Shown piece by piece: positions 27,297-27,380 of a DNA stretch of 64,000 bases. Within the stretch, counting starts at the first letter, position 1; each line of letters opens with the position of its first letter. The stretch is from Candidatus Aenigmatarchaeota archaeon (lineage in GTDB: Archaea; Aenigmatarchaeota; Aenigmatarchaeia; QMZP01; QMZT01): positions 95,975 through 159,974 of the forward strand of contig JAPLVC010000006.1 in assembly GCA_026397315.1 (NCBI GenBank). The letters are read 5' to 3'. Made by a program: the position numbers and the translations under genes. The notes under the pieces were generated by a model that searched no databases, was not told the DNA's origin, and was given only the letters and a program-made list of their open reading frames with translations.

Positions 27297-27380
27297 TAAG
27301 CTCTTTTCAGGAAAGAGCTTAAGCAGAAAGGAGCATCGCTCCACTGCGTTTCGCTCGCTTCCTGGTGTCCAAAATCCGTC
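27297..27380 (+). ncRNA. free-standing tRNA-intron-like element (family-1 hairpin + ~50 nt), no flanking tRNA exons
   Basis: TAAGCTCTTTTCAGGAAAGAGCTTAAGCAGAAAGGAGC... ~75% identical over ~75 nt to the tRNA-Pro D-loop intron. Confidence 0.5.

Follow-up and report, generated by a model that had tools for sequence, protein, structure and literature searches.

Near-identical bulge-helix-bulge (BHB) introns that occupy different tRNAs and different positions have been described in the Thermoproteales as 'intron transposition' (Fujishima et al. 2010, as summarized in PMC4090602 and PMC4033280), DPANN archaea carry many disrupted tRNA genes, and broad-specificity splicing endonucleases cut a relaxed BHB arrangement (PMC5829648). 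The 64,000-nt stretch of a Candidatus Aenigmatarchaeota archaeon analysed here (contig JAPLVC010000006.1, positions 95,975 to 159,974; hereafter the window) holds members of a sequence family that, judged by those summaries, resembles the Thermoproteales introns in that near-identical sequences lie in different tRNAs, at the D-loop, the anticodon loop and the T-loop, with a relaxed BHB. On the same basis it differs from them in its phylum, in a shared 35-nt hairpin-tail part and in having copies outside tRNAs. The copy at 27297, which has neither exons nor a BHB, is the subject of this report: positions 27297-27362 are a solo long-form copy, outside any tRNA, of a structured repeat dispersed in Aenigmatarchaeota and other DPANN-like genomes. 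Free-standing copies of such introns were not reported in the literature covered by our limited search.

Like the leaders of split tRNAs (Nanoarchaeum equitans, Caldivirga; PMC4033280), the element is intron-like sequence near a promoter, in a DPANN genome and with no complete tRNA; those leaders adjoin one half of a tRNA and form a BHB by pairing with the complementary leader of the other (PMC4033280), whereas the 27297 element has no tRNA half and no BHB. The bacterial TMECO and BoxC/PIT repeats consist of a pyrimidine stem, a loop of 3-6 nt, a purine stem, a 3-nt loop and a second purine stem, and have been linked to local rearrangement (PMC4666352). The present family shares with them (Hoyne et al. 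2000; Holder et al. 2015) the layout of a dispersed three-block repeat, purine-motif on one strand and pyrimidine-motif on the opposite one. TMECO, however, is G/C-rich and bacterial, has 9-nt blocks and forms a triplex in vitro (PMC4666352), while our motif is A/T-rich and mostly archaeal, with five triads and a 5-bp Watson-Crick clamp (N AAGC/GCTT N'), follows the direction of host transcription and serves as part of an intron; its triplex is putative. With repetitive extragenic palindromic (REP) sequences, bacterial interspersed mosaic elements and miniature inverted-repeat transposable elements (MITEs), the family has in common that it is short, palindromic, present in many dispersed copies, mostly outside coding regions, near-identical between some copies within a genome and variably present at orthologous sites. 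A possible difference is that terminal inverted repeats flanked by a duplicated target could not be defined: copies have a sharp left end and a variable right end and showed no consistent duplication, and a Pfam scan of 10 open reading frames (ORFs) of the window, the set in which RAYT or an IS200/IS605 TnpA was looked for, showed no transposase. To our knowledge, REPs do not function as tRNA introns.

The element and the leader that follows it are made up of these parts:

27297-27321, + strand: hairpin H1, TC type, TAAGCTCTTT/AAAGAGCTTA, a perfect 10-bp stem from T27297-A27321 to T27306-A27312
27307-27311, + strand: H1 loop TCAGG, between the stem arms
27322-27324, + strand: linker AGC, between H1 and the purine tail
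27325-27329, + strand: purine tail AGAAA, mirror of the 3' arm AAAGA and same-order complement of the 5'-arm TCTTT
27330-27362, + strand: H2, which makes the module long-form (GGAGC...GCTTCC), GGAGCATCGCTCCACTGCGTTTCGCTCGCTTCC
27363-27394, + strand: leader segment specific to the lineage, occurring in the window, L001 and L008 and nowhere else in the set compared
27395-27439, + strand: host leader segment GGCAAAATGGTTTAAGGAAGCCGATATATAAACCTTGTG..., shared with the ortholog L009

The family pattern reads N AAGC Y5, loop, R5 GCTT N', linker A-K-C, R5, to which the long form adds the second hairpin GGAGC...GCTTCC. Positions 27297-27329 fit it exactly (10-bp hairpin, AAGC/GCTT clamp, A-K-C linker, mirrored purine tail). 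H1 has a DNA fold of -8.6 kcal/mol (z -4.2), is also present in the RNA fold, and its pattern gave 0 expected matches in 100 shuffles. In a comparison within the window, 27297-27367 on the + strand matched the intron of the tRNA-Pro gene (15733-15663, - strand) at 83.1% identity over 71 nt (E 5.8e-15), and no similarity to that intron extended past 27367. A first-pass annotation had described an intron-like element at 27297-27380, about 75% identical to the tRNA-Pro D-loop intron, with that intron's type of hairpin and with a box just upstream. The identity holds up, at 66 of 90 columns (73%) in a global alignment of the whole interval with the 87-nt intron, as do the hairpin, a perfect 10-bp stem, and the box, TATATATAG at 27288-27296, which abuts the element's first base, T27297. 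The interval itself was drawn too long: it is intron-like through 27362 (GCTTCC), where the homology to the intron family stops, and lineage-specific from 27363 onward, and host leader, which matches L009 at 92% identity over 39 nt, occupies 27395-27433. Downstream, 27418-27439 differs from L008 by one mismatch. The closest relative of H2 is the T-loop intron of L084 (94.6% over 37 nt); against the T-loop introns of L084, L062, L005, L007 and L004 it reaches 79-95% over 36-37 nt, and against the window's own tRNA-Pro intron 75.7%. Folded as RNA, 27290-27420 gives three hairpins (-46 kcal/mol, z -3.8), and the minimum-free-energy fold places 27363-27394 in the interior of a long hairpin, at whose base GCTTCC(T) at 27357-27363 pairs with (A)GGAAGC at 27409-27415.

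No tRNA was found around this copy. ARAGORN was negative at the locus on either strand, as were Rfam at gathering score, Rfam at E<=10 over 27150-27520 (zero tRNA matches) and a splice-out of every 3' boundary up to 300 nt downstream followed by ARAGORN, and neither side of the element carries acceptor or T-arm sequence. The earlier statement that tRNA exons are missing on both sides and both strands is thereby confirmed, and the relaxed search for degraded exons that had been proposed with it, run here as the E<=10 search, turned up none. By fold and hand inspection there is no BHB at 27297, the 5' arm pairing with its local partner alone and no exon-like 4-mer pairing being found. Having neither a distal partner nor exons, the copy is not spliceable in the way that the tRNA introns are, and since two defining features of BHB introns are absent (flanking exons; two 3-nt bulges with a 4-bp helix), it falls outside that class; the third, homology to bona fide introns of the lineage, is present (83% over 71 nt to the tRNA-Pro intron). 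The flanks are instead the promoter block and the leader common to orthologs. A small RNA of the C/D or H/ACA kind, such as tRNA-Trp introns contain, is not indicated: inspection of 27297-27417 showed no C/D boxes (RUGAUGA, CUGA) and no H/ACA box, and Rfam gave no match. A known RNA family was considered and rejected, Rfam at gathering score (window and seven loci) and at E<=10 (two regions) having returned tRNAs and chance matches only.

Within tRNA genes, the module makes up the 5' part of BHB introns in the D-loop, the anticodon loop and the T-loop, partly by hand-derived structures. The window contains six copies of the hairpin-tail module in its 64 kb, the 27297 element and the following:

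15590-15749, - strand: tRNA-Pro(CGG) gene with a D-loop intron (about 15733-15648, 85-87 nt) that has a TC-type hairpin, tail and H2 at its start
15557-15588, - strand: short-form TC motif 2 nt past the discriminator base of tRNA-Pro, in the 3' trailer position
36807-36838, + strand: short-form TC motif inside a disrupted tRNA-like gene (36759-36895)
56635-56666, + strand: CT-type motif AAGCCTTTT GGA AAAAGGCTT TATC GAAAA, 2 nt past a tRNA 3' fragment (56590-56634)
61066-61096, - strand: CT-type motif that opens the intron, at the canonical position, of tRNA-Ser(GGA) (gene 60981-61130)

The copies at 61066 and 56635 are identical over 32 nt, and L100 has the same sequence as the tRNA-Ser(GGA) copy. 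ARAGORN and Rfam detected just the 3' two thirds of the tRNA-Pro gene, and cutting out about 76-81 nt after tRNA position 14-17 restored tRNA-Pro(cgg) in 64 splice variants. In the hand-derived BHB of this gene, GUAG of the exon is paired to CUGC of the intron, AGCUCUUUUCA:UGAAAAGGGCU makes up the inner helix, and CUA and AAU bulge out. Neither in pre-tRNA-Pro nor in the pre-tRNA-Glu of L060 is the module's 5' arm paired to the adjacent 3' arm; its partner in both is a second purine copy with which the intron ends. By hand-derived boundaries, the helix so formed is followed by 4-5 nt of the 3' strand that pair with exon 1, so that 3 nt bulge out at the 5' junction and bases stay unpaired at the 3' one.

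Several further tRNA-like sequences lie near these copies. The tRNA-like gene at 36759-36895 (+ strand), directly after a TruB/Cbf5-like gene, has acceptor strands GCCTCGG/CCGGGGC, a GCTC D-stem, a GCGAG-TTCAATT-CTCGC T-arm and about 60 nt of extra sequence that includes the TC motif; ARAGORN and Rfam missed it, and removal of one intron yielded no convincing tRNA. The fragment at 56590-56634 (+ strand), ..TCGAATCCCTATCCCCGCA, overlaps the end of an ORF with a metallo-beta-lactamase fold and is next to the CT-type motif. It resembles the 3' end of a tRNA-Leu(CAA)-like gene some 650 nt upstream and may be a remnant of integration or rearrangement. That upstream gene (55851-55969, + strand) is a tRNA, probably Leu with anticodon CAA, with an insert of about 35-45 nt that, by comparison with L112, apparently interrupts the anticodon stem in its 5' strand, which is not a canonical position. 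Partial units consisting of a 3' arm and tail alone lie downstream of two copies, at 15500-15556 on the - strand (AAAAGGGCTTTAGCGAAAAA, AAAAGGTTTATCAAAAA) and at 56667-56720 on the + strand (GGTTTGGCGAAAACGA, GGATTTGCGAAAGCC). A second hairpin family, GACGCAGA-TTTA-TCTGCGTC-TTTCG, occurs at 55072-55096 (+ strand) just upstream of tRNA-Gly (55104-55178) and also in L004, L007 and L014, and related hairpins followed by TTTCG lie inside tRNA introns of other metagenome-assembled genomes (MAGs). The T-loop intron at L007:1068-1200, like that of L024, has a sense module at its 5' end and an antisense TTCTT/AAGAA-type module at its 3' end, which jointly give the closing helix.

Beyond the window, an exact TC-type scan of one genome per species found seven sites, all in MAGs labelled Aenigmatarchaeota or 'uncultured archaeon'. 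Four are in introns, one in the D-loop of a tRNA-Glu and three in T-loops, of which two belong to a single MAG and are near-identical; a fifth copy adjoins a stop codon, and the last two are orthologues of the 27297 locus. Scanning metagenomes with a degenerate pattern gave at least 120 motif sites. Long-form copies, in which GGAGC...GCTTCC follows the tail, number 17 among those listed, in D-loop and T-loop introns and a few free copies. Among the matches listed, 41 of 130 distinct copies were linked to a strict T-arm on the same strand, either lying in the T-loop itself, preceding a T-arm by no more than 300 nt or following one by 7-14 nt. The corresponding share is 2.8% for randomly placed positions and 4% for the opposite strand; because several 'free' copies are visibly inside tRNAs, 41 is a lower bound. 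About two thirds of the sampled metagenome copies, again among the matches listed, lie outside tRNAs, and near-identical copies occupy different tRNAs within one MAG (L004, L005). Of the copies left after T-arm linkage, 22 start between -1 and +2 nt from the stop-codon end of a co-directional ORF of at least 80 aa, in 14 cases with the TAA overlapping the element's T|AA, and the same copies show no such cluster on the other strand. By translation the linked ORFs look real (proteasome alpha subunit, GyrB-like, HerA-like ATPase, integrase). The orientation of copies follows the transcription of the host tRNA or ORF, 41 lying on the same strand and 5 on the opposite one, and within the window copies occur in both orientations within 46 kb, again tracking host transcription. 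Many dispersed copies combined with presence or absence at orthologous sites are what a MITE- or REP-like repeat shows. In a group of free copies (L111, L124, L021/L041, L050/L103, L051 and L006), a start codon preceded by a G-rich, Shine-Dalgarno-like stretch follows 8-17 nt past the tail, and the module fills the whole stop-to-start spacer of about 45-50 nt. The motif is not described in Rfam 15 or in the full-text literature covered by our limited search.

Other explanations for the family as a whole were tried and rejected. IMG/VR gave zero TC-type matches and one general-pattern match, to a giant-virus MAG, which does not support a viral origin. A general transcription terminator is contradicted, for this genome, by the 64 ORF 3' ends in the window, where the motif follows no confident gene, and by the motif's T4-T6 runs within tRNA introns, which transcription has to pass. 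A lagging-strand orientation like that of IS200/IS605 is disfavoured, since the copies in the window lie three per strand within 46 kb and track host tRNAs. CRISPR-like solo repeats were also discarded, as arrays are absent and the single tandem case, L122, has identical 19-nt spacers. Separately, TT-type copies were seen on giant-virus-like contigs: L078 (with a capsid-like C-terminus ...NYNVLRIMSGMGGLAYSN), L122 (ankyrin repeats, tandem 49-nt units) and L133 (IMG/VR GVMAG). The A/T-richest type is therefore not confined to DPANN, and these copies may reflect either shared descent or convergence.

A relation between three strands runs through the family. We compared 137 distinct instances, 128 of them stem-consistent and 122 tail-consistent; since an alignment of all copies by MAFFT misaligned the 5' arms, equal-length subsets were used for covariation. 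The closing pair N:N' covaries (T-A 73, A-T 42, G-C 6 and C-G 3 of 137 copies). The single C of the pyrimidine tract stands at position 1, 2, 3 or 4 or is absent, the G of the 3' arm shifts along with it, and the G of the tail shifts to the same 5'-to-3' ordinal position as the C. This tail rule is obeyed by 122 of 137 copies, against a mean of 48 and a maximum of 68 with permuted tails; 69 of the 77 copies that have a C obey the same-order rule and 0 fit the reverse order. In an ungapped alignment of 23 sequences, pairing in the hairpin reaches 99.6%, and in four pairs both bases have changed. Arm and tail keep the same-order relation in all 92 cells (100%), two-sided changes numbering 19, a result that 0 of 500 shuffles reach; antiparallel pairing of the tail with the 5' arm shows 0 compensatory changes and was rejected. 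The orthologous tRNA-Ser(CGA) introns of L042 (TTTCT/AGAAA/AAAGA) and L093 (TTTTT/AAAAA/AAAAA) differ by exactly one triple change. These counts have to be read with the inheritance of the types as families, so that the independent events are few, namely four C positions and at least one orthologous switch.

Because the tail mirrors the 3' arm, the sense strand has the register of a purine-motif intrastrand triplex (Y-R-R) and the antisense strand that of a pyrimidine-motif one (Y-Y-R). The covariation supports this register, with the tail as the putative third strand. In the 27297 copy the Y-R-R blocks are TCTTT (27302-27306), AAAGA (27312-27316) and AGAAA (27325-27329), each of 5 nt and so under the 6-nt minimum of an ITxF search. 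Purine-motif triplexes are reported not to form in RNA, whereas pyrimidine-motif ones do (PMC4666352). Stem mismatches, compared as a sign of RNA or DNA pairing, were four G-T versus two C-A, small numbers.

The element lies in the intergenic region between two divergent genes:

26395-27210, - strand: ribosomal protein L4 gene, first gene of an L4-L23-L2-S19-L22-S3-L29 operon, divergent from the element
27211-27296, no strand assigned: divergent A/T-rich promoter block, between the L4 gene (-) and the element with the small ORF (+)
27440-27667, + strand: small conserved membrane-protein gene, 75 aa, whose TTG start at 27440 aligns with the ATG of orthologs (MAFK(K/P)DE(I/V)HVK...)

The block contains the boxes TATATATA (27238-27245), TTATTTAT (27264-27271), the consensus-like TTTAAATA (27282-27289) and TATATATAG. 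TATATATA lies 28 nt upstream of the ATG of the L4 gene (27210, minus strand), and a TATA-ATG spacing of about 28 nt fits a leaderless mRNA. By archaeal TATA consensus and spacing, 27211-27296 is the probable promoter block of both the L4 gene and the small ORF. It is 100% identical in L008 and L127 and 80-97% identical over 38-53 nt in L006 and L009-L012. The element thus adjoins the ribosomal protein operon promoter, as the first-pass annotation had placed it, on the opposite strand. Considered as an autoregulatory leader of that operon, which would lie in the 5' untranslated region of the operon's own transcript, it is upstream of the L4 gene on the other strand, and this gene has its own TATA 28 nt before the ATG, although a longer minus-strand transcript into it from the A/T box at 27419-27426 is possible. 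The operon opens with L4, an L3 gene upstream being absent in the window and ten related loci. The small membrane protein belongs to no Pfam family, with tblastn identities to its orthologs of 46-93%. A small antisense ORF (27278-27466) was dismissed because orthologs with another leader do not conserve it.

The order dph5, small ORF, intergenic region, L4 gene is kept in all eleven lineages fetched. The block AATGACAnTTATTTATGTTAAACTAATTTAAATATATA is common to these and the window, and the sequence after it differs as follows:

window, L008 and L127: TC-type long form
L006: TC short form
L135: TC long form and TC short form in tandem
L009: CT-like short form
L012: CT-type with a long insert
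L010 and L011: degenerate hairpins
L134: unrelated structured insert
L136 and L137: no motif

A hairpin thus stands at the same point in 8 of the 11 related lineages and is absent in 3, starting 5-9 nt past TTTAAATA in the motif-bearing orthologs. On a neighbour-joining tree of L4 and L2 the motif states are patchy, with L134 sister to L006 and TC types on distant branches, so that the point 5-9 nt past TTTAAATA is a hot spot of insertion, exchange or loss. The comparison of presence and absence at the orthologous site, proposed earlier as a check, therefore gave a positive answer, with an empty site in L136 and L137, another insert in L134 and a doubled one in L135. In this last (L135:1297-1500) the long TC copy precedes the short one and both are bracketed by repeated TAAGCT, which could reflect insertion next to a resident copy or unequal recombination. 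As for the proposal of a relic of intron transposition or reverse splicing, membership of the same family as the tRNA-Pro intron stands; the direction from intron to free copy is not established, and relatives have a hairpin at the same site.

Over 8 kb the identity between the window and L008 is 89.5%; it is 63-81% at third codon positions of the flanking genes and 44% in a nearby spacer that holds no promoter. Across 27205-27435 there is one mismatch in 231 nt (27365 G>T, unpaired in the fold), and third-position changes in the L4 gene run at the usual density up to 27204. L127, which is 91.5% identical in the L4 gene, is identical to the window through 27343, where its contig ends. Homogenization among repeats fails to explain this invariance, because the single-copy segment 27363-27394 is equally invariant. 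Purifying selection would be the simplest reading, and the contrast between one mismatch in 231 nt and the divergence of the flanking third codon positions does not support the idea of a decaying relic.

We favour, with middling confidence, a reading of the element as a maintained, promoter-proximal 5' leader module of the transcript of the small membrane-protein gene. This rests on the synteny and the conserved promoter block in 11 lineages and on two further observations: the stretch between 27322 and 27440 has no T-run of 4 or more that could act as a terminator, and the small ORF has no usable promoter of its own, as one A/T box alone remains, at 27419-27426, and its distance of 14 nt to the start codon is too short. 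In L006 the ATG is 22 nt past the motif, with no other promoter. The shared promoter block would drive transcription of the small ORF through the element, starting at about 27296-27299 if TTATTTAT is used, or at about 27312-27320 if TTTAAATA is used with the 25-28-nt spacing seen at the L4 gene; in the latter case the hairpin itself would be promoter DNA, and the 3' arm, tail and H2 would be transcribed. Copies of the family would have been repeatedly inserted, exchanged or lost at this site in related lineages, and the present cassette may be held by purifying selection as a structured leader, for instance for RNA stability, processing or control of the downstream gene.

Several points weigh against the leader reading. 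We infer the start site, the 3' end and the transcribed strand alike, and the consensus TATA at 27282-27289, taken with L4-like spacing (about 25-28 nt), puts the start in or just past the 3' arm of the hairpin, which would make the hairpin promoter DNA and not RNA. With degenerate copies in L010 and L011 and an empty site in L136 and L137, the module is not needed for the small gene generally. Since the purine-motif register is reported not to form in RNA (PMC4666352), at least part of any selection would act on DNA. The unusual similarity of the window to L008 reaches 58 nt into the small ORF, on account of which we keep a recombinational sweep as an alternative: recent recombination of the cassette between lineages could be another source of its near-invariance.

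Of the rival explanations, the one that survives best, though we regard it as unlikely, is that the element is a selfish copy of a mobile repeat with no function at this locus and that the window, L008 and L127 are near-identical through recombinational spread. The presence, absence and replacement of copies at the same site, including between the sisters L006 and L134, agree with it, as do the degenerate copies in L010 and L011, a hairpin type that does not follow the L4 and L2 tree, near-identical copies in different tRNAs of one MAG (L004, L005) and the extension of low divergence 58 nt into the small ORF, like a recombination tract. However, the left edge of the invariant tract coincides with the start codon of the L4 gene, with normal third-position changes to 27204, the cassette is common to three lineages, and the invariance of the single-copy segment leaves no room for concerted evolution among repeats.

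An independent small RNA of about 100-120 nt, derived from an intron, starting from the TATA block, ending before the small ORF and acting in trans, is improbable. The first-pass annotation had offered this option, and its premises of a TATA-like box directly upstream and strong local structure (three hairpins, z -3.8) stand, joined by strong sequence constraint, but no oligo-T terminator precedes 27440, ortholog leaders range from 22 to about 200 nt with varied content and nothing conserved past the first hairpin, C/D and H/ACA boxes are absent by inspection, and no Rfam family matches. As the small ORF would be left with no promoter at a usable distance, a leader is the more economical account.

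Just as improbable, to our judgement, is a DNA-level role, in which a cruciform, an intrastrand triplex or a protein-binding site in the divergent promoter would tune the small ORF or the L4 operon and the RNA would be irrelevant. The constant placement of the hairpin 5-9 nt past TTTAAATA in all motif-bearing orthologs, filling the spacer from TATA to start, would suit such a role, as would the Y-R-R register, reported for DNA only, and the block shared with the L4 operon promoter; yet the family elsewhere follows host transcription (41 versus 5) and works as part of an RNA intron, the invariance extends about 110 nt past the motif, and five triads are short for a stable triplex.

Scarcely credible is a decayed pseudo-tRNA with its intron, or a split-tRNA half with the element as leader: besides the sequence family shared with tRNA introns it can point to the 9-mer AATGGTTTA (27400-27408), which recurs at the start of exon 2 of tRNA-Pro, but this 9-mer belongs to leader sequence present also in L009, where the hairpin is different and the long module missing, the E<=10 and splice-out searches were negative, neither side offers acceptor or T-arm sequence, strong conservation speaks against decay, and orthologous loci hold a hairpin with no tRNA, so that the decayed tRNA suggested by the first-pass annotation can be set aside.

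For the family at large we put forward, tentatively and as a possibility that we doubt more than we trust, that the 35-nt hairpin-tail module is a triple-helix-forming mobile seed of the non-canonical tRNA introns of DPANN and that the 27297 copy is a snapshot of its free-living stage. Such a module would land in exposed places, namely tRNA loops, positions behind tRNAs, stop codons and promoter-proximal leaders. Inside tRNAs a second purine copy would close the BHB and the splicing endonuclease would remove the insert; outside them it would be tolerated or co-opted.

How archaeal tRNAs gain introns at odd positions is an open question, and this family supplies material of the kind that would be needed. 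The module also conceals tRNA genes from standard finders, two of the tRNA-like genes in the window having been missed or cut short, which matters for the annotation of DPANN genomes. As comparative evidence that a natural repeat has a triplex-type register, the covariation between arm, arm and tail is unusually clean, and a single site shows empty, filled, doubled and replaced states across related genomes. The interest lies less in one copy than in a module of introns that also occurs free-living and carries a triplex-type signature, which makes the origin of such introns experimentally approachable.

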